A stretch of 64,000 nt of DNA, taken from Candidatus Nanosyncoccus sp. (GTDB taxonomy: Bacteria > Patescibacteriota > Saccharimonadia > Saccharimonadales > Saccharimonadaceae). The stretch is from positions 79,947 through 143,946 of the forward strand of contig JAZUFO010000003.1 in the NCBI GenBank assembly GCA_045640685.1, read 5' to 3'. The stretch's first letter is position 1, and the number at the start of each line of letters is the position of its first letter. The notes under the pieces are model-generated. The model saw only the letters and a program-made list of their open reading frames with translations. It made no database searches and was not told the DNA's origin. Positions 11,158 through 20,555 of this stretch are shown one piece after another. Position numbers and translations under genes: made by a program.

Positions 11158-12435
11158 TTAATTAACTTTACGTATTTTATCATACTTTTCCCGAATTGCC
11201 AAGTAGTAAGCTGTCGGAATACATCTATCTTCAAAGATAGCATCATGACCATGAATAGGATCGCCCAAAAAACTTCCCGCCCACGACAACGGTCGACGTT
11301 CGACTTCTTCAATTAACTCTTTAGCACTAAGAACATCGCCGCCATGCAAAATTTCATAGTATTTATTTTGCAATTTTGCATCCAAATCATCACCAGAAGT
11401 CTGCTTAGTCTTATCGCTCCATGACATAATTTTTTCAAATTTTTCCCTGTTATCGCTGTATAAATATTTTATACGATTTAAACAATATGTCTTAACGCCA
11501 TTATAAAAGTCGCCTTCACGCGCAATAGACACGTCCTCGAACCATTCAAGCAAAATTTGTCCCATATTAAGACCAGTCACCTCATTAAAACGATTCTGCC
11601 ACCCAGCAGAGTTATTTGTTTCGAGAACATAAAAACGTCCAGAGTTTTTACTGCGAATAATATCACAACCAGCATATTCCAAACCACCGACCGAAGCCAT
11701 TCGACAAGCAATTCGCGTTATTTCGCGCAAAACCTCAGGATCTTCTTCGCGAACTTTTTCCTTAACACCAGCAGACTTAGCGACAAAATCTCCAGGCCTT
11801 TCGTGATCAAGTTGCTTGCGCATCGCGCCAACCGCAACACCACCCACCACAAAGACGCGCCAATCATAATCAGCAACAATATATGGCATAGCCATAATCG
11901 CGTTCCAGGAGCCTTCTACGACATCCAAACGAGCCTCATTAGGAATTAATACAATTCCCTTGCCAGACGTACCATAACGCTCTTTTAAGACCAAAGGATA
12001 TGTCAAAAAACCATCACGGACAAGCCTTTTAACATCTTCTTTATTCTTAACATTATAAACAAGCGCTGTATTATTACGCAGCTCTGCATCCATACCAAAC
12101 AAACCATGTTGGTAATATTTATCAGAAGAATATGCTCTCCCACCTACCATATGAGTATTCATGGTTATAATATTATTTTTATCCAACCACGAAAAAATGC
12201 GCGCAGTTTCAACGGGCAAAAGTTCACCGTTCAAATCGCGCCAAATTACATAATCAGAAAAACAATCACGAAGATTACATTTATCAACCTTTTCGCGATC
12301 AATTGATTCGACATGCGAAAACCCCCACCCGGTTTTCGCTGTCTGCTCGCGCATGTCGTTTACCGTACGATAATTGACCTTGCGCCCCTCAACTAGTGTT
12401 AAGACTTTATTTTTCATCCTTCTCAGATTCATCAT
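11158..12435 (-). CDS. ATP-grasp (RimK-like) ligase with extra N- and C-terminal regions
   Basis: ATP-grasp core KERYGTSGKGIVLI ... DYDWRVFVVGG ... GCDIIRSKNSGRFYVLETNNSAG. The start is uncertain (12435/12432/12417). Confidence 0.65.
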   Translation of the reverse strand: MMNLRRMKNKVLTLVEGRKVNYRTVNDMREQTAKTGWGFSHVESIDREKVDKCNLRDCFSDYVIWRDLNGELLPVETARIFSWLDKNNIITMNTHMVGGRAYSSDKYYQHGLFGMDAELRNNTALVYNVKNKEDVKRLVRDGFLTYPLVLKERYGTSGKGIVLIPNEARLDVVEGSWNAIMAMPYIVADYDWRVFVVGGVAVGAMRKQLDHERPGDFVAKSAGVKEKVREEDPEVLREITRIACRMASVGGLEYAGCDIIRSKNSGRFYVLETNNSAGWQNRFNEVTGLNMGQILLEWFEDVSIAREGDFYNGVKTYCLNRIKYLYSDNREKFEKIMSWSDKTKQTSGDDLDAKLQNKYYEILHGGDVLSAKELIEEVERRPLSWAGSFLGDPIHGHDAIFEDRCIPTAYYLAIREKYDKIRKVN

Positions 12436-13261
12436 CTAGATCTTTTGGATCGATATTACCACCATTAATAGAATCTGTTGCTTTTTGCAAAGCCTTCTTT
12501 GAACGATAGAGATAGAAACTACCACCACAAATACCGAGAACAATAGCTATAGCCATTGCGATTTCTGCAGGGCCAGTATGTGGAAGTTCTGCTGGAACTT
12601 CAGGAACTTCAGGAACTTCTTCACCATCAGCTTTAATTGTATAAATAACATGGCCAGAATATTCAGCACAGCCATAGACTATACCATCAAGTTTACCAAC
12701 GCCAAGATATGTTCCTTCTTCAGTAAACAAGCTTGAAGGAAGAACGCTACCATTAATTGCCCAGCCGTTATAAATTTTTGCTGAACCAGAGACATATGAC
12801 AACTTAACATCTTTTGCTGCTGTCATGTAAGCCTCATCCCAAACCTTCTTTGGGTTAGTATTTGAAGCGGAAATAACTGCAGCAACAGTAACTCTGTCGC
12901 CACTTTTTACGGTTGCTGGAAATGTTGAGGCAAGACGTACTTGTTGAGCAATACCAACACCGGTATCATTAGTATTTGTTGCAGCATCATTATGATAGCC
13001 GATATAAACTTCATATTCTTTACCAGGTTCAATTGTAATCTCATCACCAAAGACACCGCTAGCACCTTTTTCAGCGATTCTAACGAAATTACGTTCATCG
13101 CCAAGTTCTGGGTTATCAGTAATAGAGTTAAACGTTGCAGCCGATGCCGGTTTCTCCATAGTATAGGTAGGACGTTCTGGACCCCACGCCATTACGCTAG
13201 TAACTGGCGAGATGGCAACCATCGCAATTGCTGCAATATATTTTTTCTTTAATCCCTTCAT
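12407..13261 (-). CDS. Secreted cell-wall-anchored (LPxTG) surface protein with an unusually long acidic tail
   Basis: N-terminal signal peptide. LPHTG, then TM AEIAMAIAIVLGICGGSFYLY, then RSKK, then an extra 26-aa acidic tail ending DDESEKDEK. Confidence 0.75.
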   Translation of the reverse strand: MKGLKKKYIAAIAMVAISPVTSVMAWGPERPTYTMEKPASAATFNSITDNPELGDERNFVRIAEKGASGVFGDEITIEPGKEYEVYIGYHNDAATNTNDTGVGIAQQVRLASTFPATVKSGDRVTVAAVISASNTNPKKVWDEAYMTAAKDVKLSYVSGSAKIYNGWAINGSVLPSSLFTEEGTYLGVGKLDGIVYGCAEYSGHVIYTIKADGEEVPEVPEVPAELPHTGPAEIAMAIAIVLGICGGSFYLYRSKKALQKATDSINGGNIDPKDLDDESEKDEK

Positions 13262-13277: not shown

Positions 13278-14825
13278 TTATTTATTATTGTTTAAAAAGC
13301 TACGCCAATCGTCTGCCGCTTCTTCATCAGATTTATCAGGAGTTTTCCCCTGCTCTTTTTCTTTTTCGTCAGCATTCTTTTGATCATCGCTATTACCAGA
13401 TGAAGGTGGAGTTTCGCCAAATGTTGGAGCATCCGTCTGTTCACCAGGACCAGATTTTTCGAGTTTATTGTCACTTTCGTCACCAACTCCCATGTTGTCA
13501 TGAATCGCGTTAGGATCTTTAGCGACATTTCCTTCCGCGCCTTCAGATCCGCCACCCTCAGAGCCTTCAGAGGTTTCAGATCCACCCCCCTCGACTCCTT
13601 CACTAACTTCAGAGCCATTCCCCTCTTGGCCAGTTTTAGTGAGTTTTGTTGTTTTTTCGGTTACTTTATTACTTTTGACAGCTGTACTAGTTTTCACCTG
13701 CTTCTCAACAACAACTTGAGCCGCGCCACAACGTCCAAACAAAACAGTTTGTCCATTCTCGAATGTAACCTTTACGCCATCAAATACATCGTAGTAATGA
13801 TCAACCATTTTTTCACGAACATCATCAAATGTTGCTTCTTTGCCTTTGGTTTGAAGAACGGACGTTGAAGCATCAAAGTCTTCATAATGAACGTGTTCGA
13901 ATTCTTCAACCCCCTCGTCATTAATAGCTTCCTTGAGTCTAGATTGAAGCTCCTTTGCATCGCCTTTAGCAGCTGAACGCAAAGCTGCATCTAGTTGACC
14001 GCCAACATCTTTCTTAAAATCAATCGAAATATCATTTCCGCGATTATCATCTTTTGAGTTGTAGTCATTAATAACTGATGCAATCTCATCGTCGGACAAA
14101 ACTTCACTCGCAACGCGACCCAAAATTGAAGGGTTATTATTTACCTGAAACTCGAACATGTTGCCCCATTCGGTTTGAGTACAGTTTGAATCGACCGAAT
14201 AGCCATAATCATAATAGTTGTTACCTTTATCATCATGCCATTCATAAGTCGATAATGAATATCCATCTTCATCATTATCAATAAAGCCCGCAGCTTCATA
14301 ATCATATTTGGTACCATTGCTAGATTCTCCAGCCCATCTACCACTAGTCCAAATTCTTTCTGCATTATCAGGCCGCGTAACGGTTTCTACATTATTTTCC
14401 GCACTAGTAGAGGTTGTCGACGATGCAATACCATAGCCAACCAGCTCTTCTTCAATATCAGCATCAACATCAACATCAGTTTCAGCTTCCATCTTTGCCA
14501 TTTCACGCTGCGCGGCTTTCTTCCCAGTTTGATAGCCAACAGCAACAGAAGTAGCAACCGTAAAAGCCGCAACAACAGCAATACCCGTAAACATCTTTTT
14601 ACAAATAGTTTTCTTAGCCGATTCGATTGCTGAAGCAATTGATTCCATTGTTTCAACAGCGGTCAAAACTTTTTCACCAGCCTTAGCATACGCCTCGCGT
14701 TTCGCCTCAACTTCAGCGGTATCGGCATCTACCTCAGCGGTATCGGCATCTACTTCGGCGGCCTCTGGTGTTATTACCTCTTCCTCATCATCAGGAAATA
14801 CAAAATAACTTTCCGGTCCTTTCAT
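13278..14825 (-). CDS. Acidic repeat-containing single-pass membrane/surface protein (515 aa), paralogue of the 1290-aa protein
   Basis: AEVDADT repeats, TM FTGIAVVAAFTVATSVAVGY, G/S/E-rich stretch. C-terminal motif DPNAIHDNMGVGDES is shared with ORF 15221-19093. Confidence 0.7.
   Translation of the reverse strand: MKGPESYFVFPDDEEEVITPEAAEVDADTAEVDADTAEVEAKREAYAKAGEKVLTAVETMESIASAIESAKKTICKKMFTGIAVVAAFTVATSVAVGYQTGKKAAQREMAKMEAETDVDVDADIEEELVGYGIASSTTSTSAENNVETVTRPDNAERIWTSGRWAGESSNGTKYDYEAAGFIDNDEDGYSLSTYEWHDDKGNNYYDYGYSVDSNCTQTEWGNMFEFQVNNNPSILGRVASEVLSDDEIASVINDYNSKDDNRGNDISIDFKKDVGGQLDAALRSAAKGDAKELQSRLKEAINDEGVEEFEHVHYEDFDASTSVLQTKGKEATFDDVREKMVDHYYDVFDGVKVTFENGQTVLFGRCGAAQVVVEKQVKTSTAVKSNKVTEKTTKLTKTGQEGNGSEVSEGVEGGGSETSEGSEGGGSEGAEGNVAKDPNAIHDNMGVGDESDNKLEKSGPGEQTDAPTFGETPPSSGNSDDQKNADEKEKEQGKTPDKSDEEAADDWRSFLNNNK
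14710..14765. repeat. 21-bp in-frame tandem repeat (about 2.5 copies)
   Basis: ACYTCAGCGGTATCGGCATCT is repeated; it encodes AEVDADT. Confidence 0.8.
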
Positions 14826-14826
14826 T

Positions 14827-15150
14827 CTATGCCTCGAGCCTTTCTATGATTTGATTTTTTAGATCCATCATCTCATCTTTCATAATTTCTTCTAGGTTCA
14901 ATCCAGTTTTTGCGAAAAAGCCTCTATAATCCTCTTCCGAAGAATCGTTCTTTGTCATCTCCAAAAACTCATTTCTTTGATCTTCGGTTAAGCGACCAAA
15001 AATCGCAATACCGATATTTTTATCCAAAACCTCCATCGCCCAATCCCTAAGCCCGTATCTTTCCGAACCATATTTCATGAACTCATCGAGGTTTAATATT
15101 TGATCCACAAATCCACCCAGTAGTGAATCTTCAATGAGATAATTTTTCAT
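14827..15150 (-). CDS. Small acidic helical protein (107 aa), paralogue of the C-terminal half of ORF 19097-19804
   Basis: By-eye alignment: FGRLTEDQRNEFLEM..FAKTGLNLEEI..MDLK versus FNALPEKQKAKIDEI..IAESGIDADAI..EDFR. Stop is 1 bp before the 515-aa gene start. Confidence 0.6.
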   Translation of the reverse strand: MKNYLIEDSLLGGFVDQILNLDEFMKYGSERYGLRDWAMEVLDKNIGIAIFGRLTEDQRNEFLEMTKNDSSEEDYRGFFAKTGLNLEEIMKDEMMDLKNQIIERLEA

Positions 15151-15182
15151 AGAGTATTTTTTATATGAACCTTTCTATTTTT

Positions 15183-15210
15183 AGATTAGCATAACCATTG
15201 ATTATGTCAA
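15183..15210 (-). promoter_or_regulatory. Internal promoter for the second cassette (TTGACA-N13-TGC-TAATCT)
   Basis: rc of TGTCAA at 15205-15210 and of AGATTAGCA at 15183-15191. Confidence 0.5.
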
Positions 15211-15220
15211 CAAATCTTAT

Positions 15221-18200
15221 CTATGAGTTAGCAGTGAACTCTCTATAGCCATCAATCGCTTCAGAATTCGTCAAGTCCGGAGTTGTTCCAGCTGCCTGTT
15301 CGGCTGCATCAGCAGCTGCTTGTTCAGGAGCTGCATCTTCGGGAACTATATTATTATTCTCCGCAAATACAGGAGCTTCAGTGATCGGAGTCTCATCGAC
15401 GCCGCGCTGATCCAAGTCGTTAGTGCTTTCATCACCAACGCCCATATTCTCATGGATTGCTTCAGGATTCTTTGGAGTATTTCCCTCTACTGGTTCAGAA
15501 CCACCACCTTCATCACCAGCGGTAGCTTCGATGCCCGTTCCTTCATTGCCAGTTCCTTCATCGCCGGTTCCTTCATTGCCAGTTCCTTCATCACCGGTTC
15601 CTTCATCACCAGTTCCAACATTCTCCGATTCATCAGAAGTTACTGGTTTCGGAGCACGATGTTTTACGATACGCTTAATACATTTTTGTTCACAAAGAGG
15701 CATATCGCCAACTTTTCCGCCTTCAGCGCCATACTTACGACACCACCAACCTTCATTACCAACATATTCAATATCGCCATTTTCATCATAATGATATGGA
15801 TATAATGCTACGCGAGTTGTCGATGCGCGTGTGGTATCAAAGTCGTTATTGCTGTTTGCGTAAGTTGAAACACGATTTGTAATCGTCTCAACACGGAAAC
15901 CACCACCATCAAGATCATGTTCCATCTTGTCGATTGTCGCATTAACAACATTATCCCAATACTTGCCATTTTCTGGCAATTTTATTTGTTCGAGGAAAAT
16001 GTTCAAATCTTCCTCAGAATTAATTACGCCATCTTCAATTCCCCACCGTCTGAGCAAGTCCTCATCAATGCCGATCCCTCTAAGAGTGTCTGGCTCCAAA
16101 ATTCCATAGTTTGAAGCATTTTGACCAAGCATGTATGGGTTTGTTCCAGTACGAACAATCATTTGTTTGAAATAACTTAATTGTTCCGACGCATCCATTA
16201 TGCCATCACCATTTGCATCCCACTCCATTGGCGTACCAAGATAGTTTTTACCTTCAAAGAATGGCTTATTTAAGAATGCATCGTATCTTTCATCATAACC
16301 ACCACTAAACTCATAATCATTAAAGGTCAATGTTTCAGAAGATCCATCTGTCAAATTTGATCCTACCAATGAGAAACTTCGAGTATTATCAACCTCAAAC
16401 ATTGCTGGCAAACGATCATCACCATCGACTTCAACGCCATTAAAGATTTCACTCATATTGATGTTTTCGTTTGAACTATTCAAAGCAAATTGAGAAATAG
16501 TTTCAGATCCACCAACATTATTTGGCATTGTTGCGGTAAATGCATAAGCCTCATTTGAGATACTAGCAGAAAGAGTACTGTCCATAGTAGCCTTTTTACC
16601 GATTGCCGTAGCGTAAGAAATCATTCTATCGCCCTCAACTCTACCAACACGTGCCGTGCCAATAAAGTTAGCTACGCCACCATTACCAACCTTTGACGTA
16701 TCAAGAATATCTGCTGGAAGAACAACTTTACCATCTTGAATTTCGAATTCCAAAGCTTCCCCAGGACCATTTCCATCAAGATCAACAAAGAATTTTGCGC
16801 CTTCCGGAATCTCGCCACCGTTTATGCCAGAGACGGAAACCTCATATTGATCCATGCCATCCGCCGAAATAGCGACTGGTTTTCCGAAGACAGCCCTAAG
16901 TTCGCTCTTACCCCAGTCAACATTACCAGTCTCAACAGCATTATCTTGTTTTTCAAGATAGTCCGCAATACTCATTTCACCATAATGTGATGACGTGACA
17001 ACTTCGCGATTCAATTCGATGTTATACTCATTTTTTAGATTCTCAGCAACTGTTTTGAAAGTTTCTTCATCAGTAAGATCAATATCACTACCATTCAGTC
17101 CTTCAAGGTCAAGTGGAGTATCAATTTTTTCGTCACCAACCGTATCAAAGCCAATAATAGTTTTTCCATCTTTGTATTCAGTGATTAGGCGCGCACCACT
17201 TGGCACTTCTTTAGGTTCAATAGTTTCACCCACGGTAGTTTCTGTCGCAACGTCCGCAACCTTCTCAGTCGCATCCTCAATTGCTGTATCTACCTCTACC
17301 GGAACAAGATTCAATCCGTTCCATTTCAGGCTTCCATCTTTCAGACCATTTATTTCTTCCATCAATTGTTTATGACCAAAAACATACGAAGCAACACTAG
17401 ATACCACAAATGCAGTCGCACCGGCTTTAGCGGCACTCTTCATGACTTCCATTCTTTGTTCTTTTCGAACTGCCTTAAATTCTTTAGCAATCTCCTTAGT
17501 GCGCTCTTCAATCTTCTCATAAAGATGATTTGGTTCATCATCAAAATCCATTACGCTTGTGCTACGTTTTGCGTACTCTTTTTCCTCATACTCACTCATC
17601 AATTTGCGAAGACGGCTTATTTCTTTAAACATCCCGAGTTTTTCTTCTTCGATGTTTGAACGACTATTTTCTTCAAGCTTCCCCTCTTTAGAACGTTTAC
17701 CGTAACCTAACAGTTGTATTTGTTGTTCATTCTGGAATTTATTCCTCGCCATCAAGTCAGCAACCAAATCAATTACGGCTTCGTAATTTTTTTCATCAAC
17801 CGCCGAAATTTTAGCCATCTCTTCAGTCTTTTTTACGACCGACACAACGCCAAATCTAGCCTTCGCCCGTTCAACATCCTCACCACTCAATGCGTCATTA
17901 ATATTCTTCTTTCTTTGATTCCTTCTCTCTTTTATTGCACCAGCTGCAGTACCAACCGCAGTGCTAAGGATAATTTTTGCACCCTTCGAAACAATTGTGG
18001 AATTTGAAATACTTTTTGCAAAAGCACTCTTAGAAAGACCCATAACACTTGAGCCAAGAGCCGTGACGGCAACACCAAGAACAAGATTATTTTCAAGCGC
18101 AAGCTTTTGTCCAAAATTATTATAGACTTCCTTGGCGGCAAGACCAATTTTAGCTTTAGTTTCATTAAACTCAATTTTTTCTATATAGGCATCAATCGCC

Positions 18201-19093
18201 TCGAGTGCTTTATTATGATCTTCTATAGCTTTTGCATCTTTACTATTATTGGCAAAATTCTCAAATTCTTTAGTAAACAATCCAGAAAATTTTTCTTGGA
18301 TATCTTTCATGATCTCGTCGTAATTATCCTTAACAATACCGCCCTTAGCGTCTCTACCTTTTTCACCCTCCCTCATCTTTGTCACCATCGCTTCTCTATC
18401 GGTATCAGGATCATCCAAAGGTGATTTTGTCGAGCCTTTCTCGCGACTAGCAATATCTATTATGTAATCCCTTAGGTCTTTCTTAACCTCTTTATCATGT
18501 TTTAATGTTTCGTCAGAAGTCTCAACATATTCAACATCCATATCGCCACTAAGGTTTTCGACAGCTAACTTTGCGCGCTCAAGAGCAGCATCCCCAATAT
18601 GGTCTTTCTTACCATTCTTGTATTTATTTTCGACAGTAGCTAAAATTTCGCGGTCACTTTGTGTTACCCCTCTTCTATCTCTTGCTTCACGTAAATCAGA
18701 AATAGCAACCTCGCCAGCATTCACACTATTATTTTCTTGGATCGCTTTAATAGCTAGATTTTTATATCTATTTGCAGTTTTAAGAACAAAGACGTCATCT
18801 TTAACATGTGTAAATAAATTTACAACCCCCCTAGTTACCTTGCCATTAAAAATCTTATTACTTTCAATTTTTTTCTGTCTATCTTCCTTAACTTTTTCAA
18901 GATCTTTTCCGGCATATTCAAGCGCAATACCAATAGCATTTTGTTTAATATCATCAGCGCTTAAGTTCGTAGCAACCGCCAAAACCTTCTCACCACGTTC
19001 GAGATTTTTAATACGATCATCTAGGCTCATCGCTTCAGGAGTCACCGGCGATGCTGGCGGAGTCGAAGGACTTTTAGGTCTAGTACCCATCAT
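15221..19093 (-). CDS. Giant (1290 aa) acidic multi-TM/surface protein
   Basis: About 330-aa charged N-terminal region and hydrophobic segments around aa 340-390 and 565-585. Large extracellular-looking region, GTG(D/N)E x6 repeats. C-terminal NPEAIHENMGVGDES motif and ...DGYREFTANS end. Confidence 0.75.
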   Translation of the reverse strand: MMGTRPKSPSTPPASPVTPEAMSLDDRIKNLERGEKVLAVATNLSADDIKQNAIGIALEYAGKDLEKVKEDRQKKIESNKIFNGKVTRGVVNLFTHVKDDVFVLKTANRYKNLAIKAIQENNSVNAGEVAISDLREARDRRGVTQSDREILATVENKYKNGKKDHIGDAALERAKLAVENLSGDMDVEYVETSDETLKHDKEVKKDLRDYIIDIASREKGSTKSPLDDPDTDREAMVTKMREGEKGRDAKGGIVKDNYDEIMKDIQEKFSGLFTKEFENFANNSKDAKAIEDHNKALEAIDAYIEKIEFNETKAKIGLAAKEVYNNFGQKLALENNLVLGVAVTALGSSVMGLSKSAFAKSISNSTIVSKGAKIILSTAVGTAAGAIKERRNQRKKNINDALSGEDVERAKARFGVVSVVKKTEEMAKISAVDEKNYEAVIDLVADLMARNKFQNEQQIQLLGYGKRSKEGKLEENSRSNIEEEKLGMFKEISRLRKLMSEYEEKEYAKRSTSVMDFDDEPNHLYEKIEERTKEIAKEFKAVRKEQRMEVMKSAAKAGATAFVVSSVASYVFGHKQLMEEINGLKDGSLKWNGLNLVPVEVDTAIEDATEKVADVATETTVGETIEPKEVPSGARLITEYKDGKTIIGFDTVGDEKIDTPLDLEGLNGSDIDLTDEETFKTVAENLKNEYNIELNREVVTSSHYGEMSIADYLEKQDNAVETGNVDWGKSELRAVFGKPVAISADGMDQYEVSVSGINGGEIPEGAKFFVDLDGNGPGEALEFEIQDGKVVLPADILDTSKVGNGGVANFIGTARVGRVEGDRMISYATAIGKKATMDSTLSASISNEAYAFTATMPNNVGGSETISQFALNSSNENINMSEIFNGVEVDGDDRLPAMFEVDNTRSFSLVGSNLTDGSSETLTFNDYEFSGGYDERYDAFLNKPFFEGKNYLGTPMEWDANGDGIMDASEQLSYFKQMIVRTGTNPYMLGQNASNYGILEPDTLRGIGIDEDLLRRWGIEDGVINSEEDLNIFLEQIKLPENGKYWDNVVNATIDKMEHDLDGGGFRVETITNRVSTYANSNNDFDTTRASTTRVALYPYHYDENGDIEYVGNEGWWCRKYGAEGGKVGDMPLCEQKCIKRIVKHRAPKPVTSDESENVGTGDEGTGDEGTGNEGTGDEGTGNEGTGIEATAGDEGGGSEPVEGNTPKNPEAIHENMGVGDESTNDLDQRGVDETPITEAPVFAENNNIVPEDAAPEQAAADAAEQAAGTTPDLTNSEAIDGYREFTANS
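15527..15616. repeat. 15-bp in-frame tandem repeat, 6 copies
   Basis: TTCATYRCCRGTTCC units encoding GTG(D/N/I)E. Confidence 0.85.
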
Positions 19094-19096
19094 TTT

Positions 19097-19804
19097 TTAA
19101 GCCTCCAAGTTTTCCTCATCAATAGCGAGATAGAGTTTTCTAAAATCTTCCAGTGCGTTTGAAGCAATCGCATCAGCGTCAATGCCAGACTCAGCAATTA
19201 CTGCCTCCACTTCAGCGACATCTGGATTTTCTTTTCCAGCAATCTCATCAATCTTGGCCTTTTGTTTCTCAGGAAGAGCATTAAACAATGCCTGATTTAC
19301 CATGAAGTTTTCTCTTTGAACGAGATCTTCAATCATTGCGGCACGAGTATCATCATCGATATCGGTAAAACCTTTTTCCTCCAATAAGCCATTGGCAAAA
19401 ATTGCAAGAACCTCATCAGTAGACATTTCCTCAAGAGCTTCGCGAACTTCTTCATCGCTCATTTCTGGCTCATCAGTTTTTACCTCGATTGACTCTTCGA
19501 CAGAGTGATCAACAGCATAATCCGCGATCGGTTCAGTAGTCGGCTCAAACGTAGGTTCTGCAATTGGTTCAACAACAGGTTGTTCAATAGGTTGTTCAAC
19601 AGGCTGAGCGACCGGCTCAACAACAGGTTGCATAATTGGCTCAGCTACAGGCTGAGGCATTGGTTCAGCAACTGGTTGAAATACTGGTTCTGCAACTGGT
19701 GGCATAACCGGTTCGATAACGGGTTGCATAATTGGTTGAGAAGCAGGAATCTGAGCATCAGAAACCTGAGAGTCATTATTAGTTGGTTGGACAAAATTAT
19801 CCAT
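19097..19804 (-). CDS. Acidic protein with (Q/E)P(V/I) repeats and a C-terminal helical domain (235 aa)
   Basis: QPIMQPVIEPVMPPVAEPVFQPVAEP... repeats. The C-terminal half is paralogous to ORF 14827-15150. Stop is 3 bp before the 1290-aa gene. Confidence 0.65.
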   Translation of the reverse strand: MDNFVQPTNNDSQVSDAQIPASQPIMQPVIEPVMPPVAEPVFQPVAEPMPQPVAEPIMQPVVEPVAQPVEQPIEQPVVEPIAEPTFEPTTEPIADYAVDHSVEESIEVKTDEPEMSDEEVREALEEMSTDEVLAIFANGLLEEKGFTDIDDDTRAAMIEDLVQRENFMVNQALFNALPEKQKAKIDEIAGKENPDVAEVEAVIAESGIDADAIASNALEDFRKLYLAIDEENLEA

Positions 19805-19849
19805 GGTGTGGAGACCTTTCTTTTTATTTTTATGACCTTATCTGTTCTA

Positions 19850-19878
19850 AACTTAGCATAAACATATTCTCAAGTCAA
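19850..19878 (-). promoter_or_regulatory. Promoter of the surface-protein operon (TTGACT-N14-TGC-TAAGTT)
   Basis: rc of AGTCAA at 19873-19878 and of AACTTAGCA at 19850-19858, with a 17-bp spacer. Confidence 0.55.
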
Positions 19879-19917
19879 CCCCTACAATTTCCTTCCCAAG
19901 AAACAAAAACGCACAAG

Positions 19918-19946
19918 AAAAAACCGAACATTTAGTTCGGTTTTTT
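19918..19946. terminator. Bidirectional intrinsic terminator
   Basis: AAAAAACCGAAC-ATTTA-GTTCGGTTTTTT. Confidence 0.75.
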
Positions 19947-20035
19947 CTGTAATTTATGGCGTCTATCTTATAAGTAATTTTCCTTCTTTTTATTAAGGGT
20001 TAATATTAATTTTTACTACATTGGTATTCCCTTTC

Positions 20036-20179
20036 CTACGATCTGAACAATAAGCTAAGTACGTGTTTACCAGTCTGTTGATGTCTTTTACGCTTTTCCA
20101 GTAGTTCTTTTGCCCTATCATTTATTTCATTCTTGCTCGAATCGTAACTTGATTCATTTGGATATTCTTCAAATGTCAT
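20036..20179 (-). CDS. Candidate small protein (47 aa), below the ORF-track cutoff
   Basis: Translation MTFEEYPNESSYDSSKNEINDRAKELLEKRKRHQQTGKHVLSLLFRS. AAAGGAA lies 11 nt upstream. It has its own promoter (20322-20350) and terminator (19918-19946). Confidence 0.4.
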   Translation of the reverse strand: MTFEEYPNESSYDSSKNEINDRAKELLEKRKRHQQTGKHVLSLLFRS

Positions 20180-20221
20180 TATATTTATTTTCCTTTGTCT
20201 ATCTTATATTTATTTTCCTTT
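20179..20221. repeat. 18-bp direct repeat x2 (25-bp period) at the small-ORF start
   Basis: TTATATTTATTTTCCTTT at 20179-20196 and 20204-20221. On the coding strand this is AAAGGAAAATAAATATAA, so the RBS region is duplicated. Confidence 0.8.
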
Positions 20222-20321
20222 CTCTCCGTTCCCGAATCCTCCTTTCATCTTGTCGGGTGTTTTGAGTGGTTGTTTTAATATTTTGTTTTGTTAGTTTTTA
20301 TGTTATTTGCTAACTGTCTTA

Positions 20322-20350
20322 ATACTACCACACTTATGCTATTTTGTCAA
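20322..20350 (-). promoter_or_regulatory. Promoter TTGACA-N14-TGG-TAGTAT
   Basis: rc of TGTCAA at 20345-20350 and of ATACTACCA at 20322-20330. A second TTGACA box lies about 35 bp upstream. Confidence 0.5.
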
Positions 20351-20474
20351 CACCTGTTATGCTTAAAAAACATACTTTTGTCAAATTAACAGGGGTGATT
20401 TTGTATAAAAAAATTATATTTTTCTTTCCAAAAACACATTCCATCAACCAAATCATGTTCGGTTTTTATATATA

Positions 20475-20509
20475 AATCAAAAATATGGGCCCGTAATGAG
20501 ACCCATATT
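20475..20509 (-). terminator. Intrinsic terminator after ileS
   Basis: AATATGGG / CCCATATT stem (20482-20489 with 20502-20509), followed by a T-run on the minus strand. Confidence 0.6.
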
Positions 20510-20555
20510 CTATAATTCCCCACTATATATAATATATAGTACTAAAACTACTATA

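Follow-up and report, generated by a model that had tools for sequence, protein, structure and literature searches.

A conserved envelope locus of Saccharibacteria that pairs genes for DUF5663 proteins and variable membrane proteins next to an LPXTG-type wall protein gene

What kind of system is encoded by two consecutive gene pairs, each a small gene followed closely by a large one, in the genome of a Candidatus Nanosyncoccus species? The pairs lie on the minus strand at positions 13278 to 19878 of a 64-kb stretch of contig JAZUFO010000003.1; that whole stretch of 64,000 nucleotides (nt) is here called the window. A sequence-only reading had described a duplicated cassette, in which a small helical protein precedes a giant acidic membrane or surface protein, and had suggested an envelope or host-contact system of an epibiotic or reduced bacterium. 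The four open reading frames (ORFs) are as it described them and form two small-plus-large units: S1 (235 amino acids, aa) with L1 (1290 aa) and S2 (107 aa) with L2 (515 aa). The distance from the S stop to the L start is 1 to 3 nt in both pairs, and all four proteins are acidic (pI 4.05 to 4.64). The source lineage is Candidatus Saccharibacteria, since the FtsZ encoded in the window falls in a 90%-identity cluster with a named Saccharibacteria member; the suspected epibiotic lifestyle thus fits this Candidate Phyla Radiation (CPR) lineage.

Our comparisons give good support to the view that the two S-L pairs belong to a Saccharibacteria-specific envelope cluster together with an LPXTG wall protein and a RimK-like ligase. 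The genes for these two proteins, which the earlier reading had not included, are members of the same conserved cluster, and the real unit is one of three or four genes. The genes in the window are as follows.

19097-19804, minus strand: S1, 235 aa, acidic and helical; its C-terminal ~105 aa are a predicted remote DUF5663 homologue (ORF list, hhalign, and hidden Markov model [HMM] cross-matches)
15221-19093, minus strand: L1, 1290 aa (ORF list; full-length identity to a 1258-aa orthologue at locus L003, 41%)
14827-15150, minus strand: S2, 107 aa, DUF5663 (PF18908; Pfam E 3.2e-8, score of 34.5 bits with the cutoff at 23.7)
13278-14825, minus strand: L2, 515 aa (ORF list, hydrophobicity)
12407-13261, minus strand: LPXTG-type wall protein, 284 aa (signal peptide, LPHTG, transmembrane [TM] segment), starting 16 nt after the L2 stop
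11158-12435, minus strand: RimK-like ATP-grasp ligase, 425 aa (Pfam RimK, E 4e-16; NCBIfam)

Upstream of the four S and L genes are those for MetAP, FtsA, FtsZ, NrdR, and IleRS, and downstream of L2, after the LPXTG-type and RimK-like genes, are those for L21, ParA, and ParB. This order recurs elsewhere as FtsZ, NrdR, IleRS, a small ORF, one or two units of a DUF5663 gene and a large membrane protein gene, the LPXTG-type gene, in some cases the RimK-like gene, rplU (L21), and parAB. A metagenome scan seeded with the LPXTG-type protein returned at least 238 relatives; 80 loci were retained, and 86 loci (L001 to L086) were examined overall. In 59 of these 86 loci, the gene directly 5' of the LPXTG-type one codes for a large protein (gap, -14 to 78 nt; most below 60), which usually has one TM segment and an acidic C terminus. 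The contigs carrying relatives of L2 all share the arrangement of the window, and four further contigs found through DUF5663 relatives repeat it. L003 is fully syntenic, with an S1-type protein of 133 aa, an L1-type protein of 1258 aa, a DUF5663 protein of 107 aa, an L2-type protein of 471 aa, an LPXTG-type protein of 287 aa, and the RimK-like ligase. At L006, IleRS is followed by a single unit only, and at L042 two units flank the LPXTG-type gene, in the order S2-type, L, LPXTG-type, S1-type, and giant L (1333 aa). The locus in the window is one instance of an arrangement that is widespread in Saccharibacteria at a fixed chromosomal position (ileS ... rplU-parAB).

Across all loci there are 37 distinct, non-identical S-L pairs with a stop-to-start gap of -56 to +3 nt, and the pair is present in six of the six loci found via relatives of L2 or S2. 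The pairing of small and large proteins is thus conserved in related genomes, as it should be if the earlier description was correct. The S subtype score follows the position of the TM segment in L, i.e., the length of the region preceding it (Spearman 0.85, p 4e-11, n=37; Mann-Whitney p 1e-4). S1-like proteins pair with an L whose TM segment is found at residues 226 to 502, and S2-like proteins pair with TM segments at residues 58 to 260 in 25 of 27 cases, the two outliers being at 374 and 382.

The TM segments that had been noted in both large proteins were recovered. L1 is predicted to have a cytoplasmic N-terminal region, hydrophobic segments (a clear one at residues 336 to 354 and weaker ones at 372 to 387 and 554 to 572), a large ectodomain, a Cys-Glu-Gln motif, a GTGDE/GTGNE linker, and a conserved tail. 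The layout of L2 comprises an acidic N terminus, a single TM segment (residues 78 to 96; nt 14538 to 14594), an ectodomain, a CGAAQ motif, a GSE linker, and a tail. Next to the strongest hydrophobic segment, the 15 residues on the N side contain a mean of 5.3 lysines plus arginines and the 15 on the C side a mean of 1.9 (45 members), and the N side is the richer one in 41 of the 45 large proteins (Wilcoxon p 3e-8). By this measure the family is predicted to be N-in, C-out (type II), which, together with the adjacent LPXTG-type protein, supports the envelope location proposed before.

The large proteins differ greatly from each other. Only 119 of 1176 pairs show any similarity (E <1e-5), and 18 align over more than half their length, while the N-terminal domains of the adjacent LPXTG-type proteins align in all 1128 of 1128 pairs with a median identity of 45%. 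The large-protein slot is hypervariable next to a conserved neighbour, and the locus pairs extracytoplasmic proteins that are among the most variable of the genome with one of its most conserved wall proteins. None of 48 large proteins contains a Pfam domain. For L1, there was no Pfam, NCBIfam, PHROG, or Protein Data Bank (PDB) match, and PDB sequence and profile searches with L1 and with a profile of the Cys-x-Gln module described below gave nothing credible. A phmmer search with L2 among 1.84 billion representative proteins found five relatives only: one fragment, two proteins sharing the ectodomain, L1 (E 1.9e-13), and one protein sharing just the tail, so that the L2 ectodomain has three relatives in that collection. 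PHROG and NCBIfam searches with the four S and L proteins of the window returned weak low-complexity matches only (PHROG best E 9e-4, in the S1 repeat; NCBIfam HpsJ-like E 0.0017, with a cutoff of 140 bits). The statement that the large proteins have no known domain and belong to no characterised adhesin family accordingly stands for Pfam, NCBIfam, PHROG, and the PDB. Scans of the GTDB species-representative genomes with S2 and with the tail alignment gave no matches, so the window lineage and the tail block are absent from that genome set at the pattern level. A metagenome scan with DUF5663 alignments gave none either, and a word-index homology search returned only the query itself for S2 and for full-length L1, the latter being swamped by low-complexity words.

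S2 is above the gathering threshold of Pfam DUF5663, and six of seven close relatives match the model as well. It is acidic, with five predicted helices, and AlphaFold2 run on seven DUF5663 sequences gave a confident five-helix model of it (predicted local distance difference test [pLDDT], 92.9). Neither S1 nor S2 has a signal peptide or TM segment, the pI of S is 4.1 to 4.4, and a PDB search with a DUF5663 profile gave nothing credible. The earlier alignment by eye of the 107-aa protein with the C-terminal half of the 235-aa protein was not significant in BLASTP (E 0.24), and Pfam DUF5663 misses S1 even when the C-terminal half alone is searched at E up to 10. However, the similarity holds at the profile level. 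When an alignment of S1 and its related-contig orthologue was compared by hhalign with an alignment of four DUF5663 proteins, the match had a probability of 95.7% and E 1e-8 over 95 columns, almost the full length of DUF5663, and custom HMMs of the S1 and DUF5663 groups cross-match (E 8e-4 for S1 of the window and 3e-7 for its L003 orthologue). By these profiles, S1 is best taken as a remote DUF5663 relative or superfamily member, and S1 and S2 as distant paralogues of two old subtypes. S1 also has a repeat insertion between its conserved N terminus (MDNFVQPTN) and the DUF5663-like domain, which the Pfam scan matched to PT repeat; since the 133-aa orthologue of L003 lacks it, it is a lineage-specific expansion.

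Similarity between L1 and L2 in BLAST is confined to the C-terminal part, with none elsewhere. The two proteins share only a Cys-x-Gln motif, which the sequence-only reading had not reported, an acidic repeat linker, and a tail of ~90 aa; they have no shared ectodomain. These elements and the S1 repeat are located as follows.

15680-15694, minus strand: L1 Cys-x-Gln motif CEQKC (residues 1134-1138; context PLCEQKC), at the end of the ectodomain (sequence)
15479-15616, minus strand: L1 acidic Gly/Thr/Glu repeat linker (Tandem Repeats Finder [TRF] and translation)
15224-15472, minus strand: L1 C-terminal tail, opening with the block KNPEAIHENMGVGDES (15425-15472) and terminating with SEAIDGYREFTANS (alignment)
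13716-13730, minus strand: L2 Cys-x-Gln motif CGAAQ (context RCGAAQ) (sequence)
13527-13631, minus strand: L2 GSE linker (translation)
13281-13520, minus strand: L2 C-terminal tail, opening with the block KDPNAIHDNMGVGDES (13473-13520) and terminating with EEAADDWRSFLNNNK (alignment)
19526-19738, minus strand: S1 [EQ]P[VI] repeat insertion, residues 23-93, 71 residues (repeat period 12/24 nt)

The relatedness of the C-terminal ends is clear: over the last 120 aa, L1 and L2 are 48% identical (E 9e-20). The conserved 16-aa block, K(D/N)P(N/E)AIH(D/E)NMGVGDES, is 77% identical between its two copies at the DNA level, in keeping with the earlier estimate, but the copies are offset by 1952 nt and not by the 1955 nt that the earlier coordinates implied; a longer 87-nt stretch is 72% identical. 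The in-frame repeat reported for both proteins is strong in L1 (GTGDE/GTGNE; period 15 nt, 5.7 copies, 15532 to 15616 by TRF) and weaker and looser in L2 (GSE-rich, 13558 to 13580). To call the locus a duplicated cassette was thus an overstatement. It is a two-unit instance with a shared C-terminal end, but S1 and S2 are distant paralogues and L1 and L2 have no ectodomain in common. That shared end looks as if it had been kept by concerted evolution and not by recent duplication of a whole unit.

The Cys-x-Gln motif is a family feature: ~38 of 48 large proteins have a Cys followed by a Gln within 1 to 4 residues just before the linker, usually with Pro or Val next. The linker that follows is low-complexity acidic, Pro-rich, or charged and K/E/R/A-rich. 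The motif is preceded by beta-strand-like sequence, and its cysteine is the sole one in several members. A thioester of the C3/alpha2-macroglobulin type (CGEQ/CLEQ) was considered and rejected, because the motifs (CEQ, CGAAQ, CGLQP, and CMQV) have a spacing of i+2 to i+4 and not the fixed Cys(i)-Gln(i+3); no L protein of the window and none of the 48 large proteins matched the A2M or TED families of Pfam. The ectodomain of L1 also contains a canonical EF-hand-like loop, DANGDGIMDASE (16184 to 16219, minus strand). It is retained in the L1 orthologues of L003 and L005 (DANGDGVMDSGE and DADGDGIMSADE), which suggests that L1 may bind calcium outside the cell.

The tails are of different types in different genomes, and the type is shared within a genome. 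Type A tails (KDPNAI..NMG.GDES...) are found in the window, L001, and L002, and type B tails (PKGPDTHAGD...) in L003 and L004/L005; in the four of four genomes that show both large proteins (window, L001, L003, and L004/L005), the two carry the same type. The L2 ectodomain is 38% to 45% identical to those of L003 and L004, the tails of which cannot be aligned with those of the window. At L003, the two tails share 73% protein identity and 85% mean DNA column identity, and the rest of the two proteins is unrelated. At L042, both L proteins terminate in (L/F)GIN despite the LPXTG-type gene between their units. The window cluster is itself a mosaic: S2 and the L2 ectodomain are closest to L003/L004, whereas the tail, the LPXTG-type protein, and the RimK-like ligase are closest to L001 (identity to L001 versus L003/L004, 66% versus 47% for the LPXTG-type protein and 64% versus 45% to 52% for the RimK-like ligase). 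Tails often open with a PK[NDG]P-type block. Its lysine is present in ~20 of 48 family members, and the last 110 residues of L1 contain no other. They often end in an acidic run followed by aromatic-x-x-Phe, commonly ...GDF; an aromatic residue is found within the last 8 residues of 33 of 49 large proteins, compared with 35% of background ORFs. The tails of the window terminate in ...FLNNNK and ...FTANS. Tails are low-complexity, acidic, and predicted to be disordered, and none has a Pfam match.

Divergence of the tail follows that of the LPXTG-type protein. Over 24 loci, tail distance correlated with LPXTG-type N-domain distance (r 0.67) and less with S distance (r 0.28), and the partial r for tail and LPXTG-type protein given S was 0.64. 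A partial Mantel test controlling for L21 gave 0.49, a value reached by none of 2000 permutations (29 loci). These correlations are suggestive and are confounded by physical linkage and shared ancestry.

The 284-aa LPXTG-type protein has a conserved N-domain (WGPER..FNSITDNP..GDERNFVR, with an invariant GCxEY), and its C terminus consists of LPHTG, a 20-residue hydrophobic stretch, RSKK, and an unusually long charged cytoplasmic tail. A hydrophobic N-terminal signal peptide, an LPXTG motif, a hydrophobic segment, and positive charges are all present, as expected of a sortase substrate; scores with the anchor models are below the cutoffs (Pfam, 12.2 against 20; TIGRFAM, 13.7 against 15.9). LPxTG variants occur in 61 complete relatives. 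Most relatives also have a CLIPPER/DUF11 isopeptide-type stalk domain (PMC12617251), which the version in the window lacks. The cysteine count of the ectodomain is odd in 58 of the 61, and the cysteine in GCxEY is invariant; these two features suggest one unpaired functional thiol. An intermolecular disulfide between L and the LPXTG-type protein was rejected as an explanation, because the cysteine parity is skewed on the LPXTG-type side only (L ectodomains, 28 odd and 20 even). PDB searches with the LPXTG-type protein or its profile gave nothing credible. A second group of LPXTG-type relatives (L062, L063, L078, L081, and L085) has another context, with no IleRS or DUF5663 gene nearby. These genes are followed by one for a 73- to 84-aa membrane peptide (MANKQKKKRNK...), with a histidine-kinase-like gene on the opposite strand (at L078, only its 3' end is in the contig). 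The N-domain family thus extends beyond the ileS-linked locus.

How could these parts work together? The observations to be accounted for are the anatomy and homology of the proteins, the conserved pairing and synteny, the topology signal of the family, the hypervariability, the matching of tails, and the co-divergence of tail and LPXTG-type protein. We propose that cytoplasmic S works as a chaperone, insertion helper, or adaptor on the N-terminal cytoplasmic portion of its own L, because S has no export signal, translational coupling is tight, and the S subtype tracks the length preceding the TM segment. The variable ectodomain would be displayed outside the membrane under diversifying pressure, plausibly via the host, phage, or the surroundings, and the acidic stalk would carry the tail to the wall-anchored LPXTG-type neighbour, where coupling could be non-covalent (docking) or covalent. 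Such coupling would require every L in the cell to have a tail that matches the LPXTG-type protein of that cell. We consider the chain as a whole, from helper through displayed ectodomain to a tail coupled to the wall protein, evenly balanced between being right and wrong. Docking of the tail on the wall-anchored protein, taken alone, is possible rather than probable. The proteins may have a role in host contact, and the locus is a good candidate for mediating the parasite's contact with its surroundings.

Several findings weigh against this proposal. About half of the loci have the large and LPXTG-type proteins without a detectable DUF5663 gene (such a gene precedes the large gene in 26 of 56 LPXTG-seeded loci with enough upstream sequence), so S is not obligatory. 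Foldseek found no PDB match for the S2 model (best E 1.3), and thus no fold backs a chaperone role. The lysine-plus-arginine counts are neutral for the proteins of the window (4/4 for L1 and 2/2 for L2), so that their topology rests on homology to the family. The AlphaFold2 model of L2, made from four sequences, is poor (pLDDT 40.7), and its Foldseek matches are meaningless. Identity between the two tails of the window is only 44%, a level similar to that with the tails of other type-A genomes. The tail and the LPXTG-type gene are adjacent, so linkage could yield co-divergence, and gene conversion between the repeat-flanked tails could match them without any function; L21 is short and a weak phylogenetic control, and the loci are not phylogenetically independent. 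No ORF with the TLxTC motif of sortases was found in the 64-kb window. Finally, the DUF5663 genes of Southlakia epibionticum have another context, following infB and a gene for a 767-aa hypothetical protein, and its ileS directly precedes genes for a nucleoside triphosphate (NTP)-transferase and L21, which leaves no such locus at that position.

The most credible rival does without docking. The L proteins would be independent surface or envelope proteins, with a disordered wall-spanning tail homogenised by gene conversion, and the LPXTG-type protein and S would work separately. The low-complexity, acidic, and predicted disordered nature of the tails fits such a role, the near-identical DNA of the two L003 tails resembles a recent gene conversion, and physical linkage alone can give the co-divergence. 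However, the terminal motif and the PK[NDG]P block recur in very divergent genomes with unalignable ectodomains, which argues for constraint on the tail, the units of L042 share their (L/F)GIN end although the LPXTG-type gene splits them, and the order of large protein then LPXTG-type protein holds in 59 loci; independence is unlikely but deserves to be taken seriously. A covalent, pilus-like link, with a sortase joining the LPXTG Thr to the conserved lysine that opens the tail (TPKNPE, AKDPN, or PKGPD) in the manner of YPKN, or with the conserved cysteines joined, seems improbable to us. The tail-start lysine in ~20 of 48 members, which is the sole one near the end of L1, speaks for such a link, as do the LPxTG variants and frequent CLIPPER/DUF11 stalk of the neighbour, its odd cysteine numbers and invariant GCxEY, and the near-invariant cysteine of the Cys-x-Gln motif in L. 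Yet many members lack any tail lysine, the cysteine parity of L ectodomains is not skewed, the window contains no sortase gene, and the Cys-to-Gln spacing is unlike that of the fixed CGEQ thioester.

The other explanations concern L and its tail in different ways. A small cytoplasmic partner, encoded by a gene coupled to that for a single-pass N-in protein with a big variable ectodomain and matched in subtype to its cytoplasmic region, could indicate a transmembrane signalling pair, in which L is a sensor with a variable ligand-binding ectodomain, in the manner of RsgI, and S is a cytoplasmic effector. But S is very acidic (pI as above) and has no DNA-binding, sigma, or enzymatic domain in Pfam or NCBIfam, L likewise lacks signalling domains such as anti-sigma or kinase ones, and the conserved extracellular tail and LPXTG-type neighbour would be left unexplained, which makes signalling quite improbable. 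We give still less credence to the tail being an export, sorting, or quality-control signal, read by a type IV secretion system or, through C-terminal hydrophobic residues, by a PDZ-domain protease. Many tails end in ...GDF or another terminal aromatic, at the frequency given above, and Saccharibacteria have an essential, unusual type IV secretion system (PMC10633639). However, the tails of the window end otherwise, a free C-terminal aromatic is not conserved, and the N-terminal TM anchor with the Sec-type topology of the family makes a C-terminal secretion signal unnecessary; co-divergence with the LPXTG-type protein would also be unexplained. That the units form a polymorphic toxin/immunity system, or that they are a mobile or phage-derived module whose C-terminal cassettes can be swapped, is scarcely believable, even though discrete C-terminal types (A, B, and others) occur on orthologous bodies. 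The tails are 70 to 90 aa long, acidic, low-complexity, and free of enzymatic domains, and they are followed not by an immunity-like gene but by S2 and the conserved LPXTG-type gene. There is no PHROG match with E below ~1e-3, the few listed being weak and low-complexity, and the chromosomal position among housekeeping genes is fixed in dozens of genomes.

Each unit had been assigned its own promoter, and although a simple consensus scan flagged neither, conservation in ~25 other loci backs both. The control elements are as follows.

19850-19878, minus strand: unit 1 promoter, TTGACT, N15, TGcTAAGTT (extended -10) (sequence and conservation)
19833-19843, minus strand: unit 1 leader motif, AGATAAGGTCA (conserved in ~25 loci)
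15183-15210, minus strand: unit 2 promoter, TTGACA, N14, TGcTAATCT (extended -10) (sequence and conservation in orthologous loci)
15166-15176, minus strand: unit 2 leader motif, AGAAAGGTTCA (conserved in ~25 loci)
19916-19948, minus strand: terminator-like hairpin, CCGAAC-N5-GTTCGG plus T-run (scan match; unique in the 64-kb window)

The stretches upstream of S2 and S1 (15157 to 15198 and 19824 to 19865) are 74% identical. TTGAC-N14/15-TTATGCTAA followed by a AGAAAGGTCA-like leader is found upstream of DUF5663 genes in ~25 other loci, which encode proteins only 30% to 45% identical. The shared element (TTGAC, N14-15, (G/C)TTATG(C/T)TAA) is read as a -35 box with an extended -10 box; the AGAAAGGTCA-like motif follows ~8 to 10 nt past it, and the ATG is 14 to 44 nt further. 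With just 4 exact copies in the 64 kb, TTATGCTAA was rejected as a genome-wide promoter signature. AGAWARGKTCA matches the window at 3 sites, where 0.4 are expected; two are the S-gene leaders, and one is inside an ORF. The AGAAAGGTCA-like motif is Shine-Dalgarno-like and near the predicted mRNA 5' end but usually too far from the ATG for a normal ribosome-binding site, and S2-type leaders have no Shine-Dalgarno sequence adjoining the start codon. It could serve as a standby site or bind a regulator. Because each S-L pair has its own conserved promoter and leader, each is probably a separate transcription unit, and because the conserved promoter is near consensus, the locus is probably strongly expressed.

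The hairpin, CCGAAC-N(3-8)-GTTCGG plus T-run, recurs ~100 to 150 nt upstream of the DUF5663 gene, once in each of 26 other loci (L002, L003, L006, L007, L010-L012, L017, L019, L022, L028, L031, L032, L037-L039, L041, L045-L047, L049, L050, L053, L065, L073, and L079). It is terminator-like, and just upstream of unit 1 it would close the small transcription unit that comes before. The hairpin is conserved in sequence, and not just in structure, across genomes with 30% to 45% identical proteins, which one would not usually see with a plain terminator; it may thus belong to the 3' end of a conserved RNA.

A fuller scenario would give these conserved sequences a part in cassette exchange. DUF5663 would load a carrier, the ectodomain would be a swappable cassette, possibly for host recognition, and a genome-specific C-terminal peptide would plug or be ligated into a sortase-anchored receptor, with the promoter-leader and tail-coding sequences serving as recombination anchors, so that cassettes could be exchanged without breaking the match of tail and receptor. 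Saccharibacteria are naturally competent. We offer this three-part scheme as a speculation that is, in its entirety, unlikely.

DUF5663 had previously no assigned function or partner, and we found it in the main text of no paper in the searched literature, which likewise does not describe the locus. Here it has a coupled membrane-protein partner and two subtypes that track the cytoplasmic region of that partner, S2 being above the Pfam threshold and S1 a predicted remote homologue. Southlakia epibionticum has two adjacent DUF5663 proteins, SEML1_0162 and SEML1_0163, both flagged as Patescibacteria-enriched (Wang et al. 2023, PMC10633639, Tables S1 and S2). Transposon sequencing (Tn-seq) found SEML1_0162 to be essential for epibiotic growth and SEML1_0163 to cause a growth deficit (PMC10633639). 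DPAM places SEML1_0163 in the ECOD "LTXXQ motif family" with a score of 0.864 (PMC10633639, Table S2). S2 has one LTEDQ motif reminiscent of Spy/CpxP (LTXXQ) proteins. However, those proteins have a signal peptide and two LTXXQ motifs, whereas S has no signal peptide, one motif, and no PDB fold match, and Pfam LTXXQ does not match the S proteins; kinship of S with Spy-like chaperones is only a lead. Mistic of Bacillus subtilis is an acidic helical protein of ~110 aa encoded just upstream of, and coupled to, a membrane-protein gene. S resembles it in its size of ~110 aa, acidity, helical nature, and gene position immediately upstream of a coupled membrane-protein gene, but Pfam Mistic gave no significant match (best E 0.087, one member). 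Unlike in RsgI-like anti-sigma/sigma pairs, Pfam and NCBIfam find no sigma or anti-sigma domain in L or S.

As a whole, the cluster resembles cohesin-dockerin systems in that otherwise unrelated proteins bear a C-terminal module after a flexible linker, a wall-anchored protein encoded nearby is the candidate partner, and the module type is genome-specific and common to all cargo of one cell. However, Pfam finds no dockerin or EF-hand repeat in the tails (the EF-hand-like loop of L1 is in the ectodomain) and no cohesin in the neighbour, the L cargo is itself membrane-anchored at its N terminus, and the neighbour is a putative partner of the tail. The Csc/WxL clusters of Lactobacillales also combine membrane-anchored proteins, C-terminal wall-association modules, and a small LPXTG protein, presumably as a single surface complex, but the present cluster has no WxL, DUF916, or DUF3324 domain, its tail is much shorter than a WxL domain, and DUF5663 has no Csc counterpart. 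Sortase-assembled pili come to mind because an LPXTG protein, mostly with a CLIPPER/DUF11 stalk, adjoins a protein with a PK[NDG] lysine. They differ in that here Pfam detects no pilin domains, no pilus-specific sortase is encoded nearby, the lysine is missing in many members, and the putative base protein is held by an N-terminal TM segment. The components are of known kinds (a DUF family, LPXTG proteins, and variable surface proteins). The literature searched does not describe the conserved way in which they are combined, nor the matched tails or the Cys-x-Gln module.

Cultivated Saccharibacteria live attached to Actinobacteria, and to our knowledge, little is known of their recognition surface molecules beyond type IV pili. 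Several essential Southlakia envelope proteins are regarded as adhesins (PMC10633639), and none could be tied to this locus. Through this locus, the Patescibacteria-enriched DUF5663, one member of which is essential in the one Tn-seq data set, acquires a concrete partner in the genome. If the proposed coupling of tail and receptor is real, the pair would be a compact peptide-receptor system for surface display in a monoderm CPR cell, and host range could then be studied by swapping ectodomains in strains that are naturally competent. If the coupling is not real, the cluster is still a useful marker of a hypervariable envelope locus.

The remaining genes of the neighbourhood are less constant. 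The RimK-like gene is missing from most loci; it is an accessory member in the window lineage, with no evident link to the surface proteins. In the window, 29 nt of it overlap the 3' end of the LPXTG-type gene, and L001, L003, and L004 have the same overlap; it overlaps or starts within one base of that 3' end in this lineage and a few others (L001, 3052-4326; L003, 7011-8282; L004, 3302-4579; L019, 10314-11600; L031, 10300-11229). Modification of the L C terminus by this ligase was rejected, because the C-terminal residues are not conserved and the predicted topology puts the tail outside the cell. The 750-nt spacer between IleRS and S1 (19805 to 20555) contains no credible RNA according to Rfam, which finds only tRNAs in the window. 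It does contain a 47-aa ORF (MTFEEYPNESS...LLFRS; 20036 to 20179, minus strand), located between a near-consensus promoter (TTGACA-17-TAGTAT, 20322 to 20350) and the conserved hairpin. Other loci have at this position either a family of 32- to 41-aa peptides (MSEKISTLMED..YELA.MFM.MI) or ORFs of ~60 to 145 aa with a basic C terminus.

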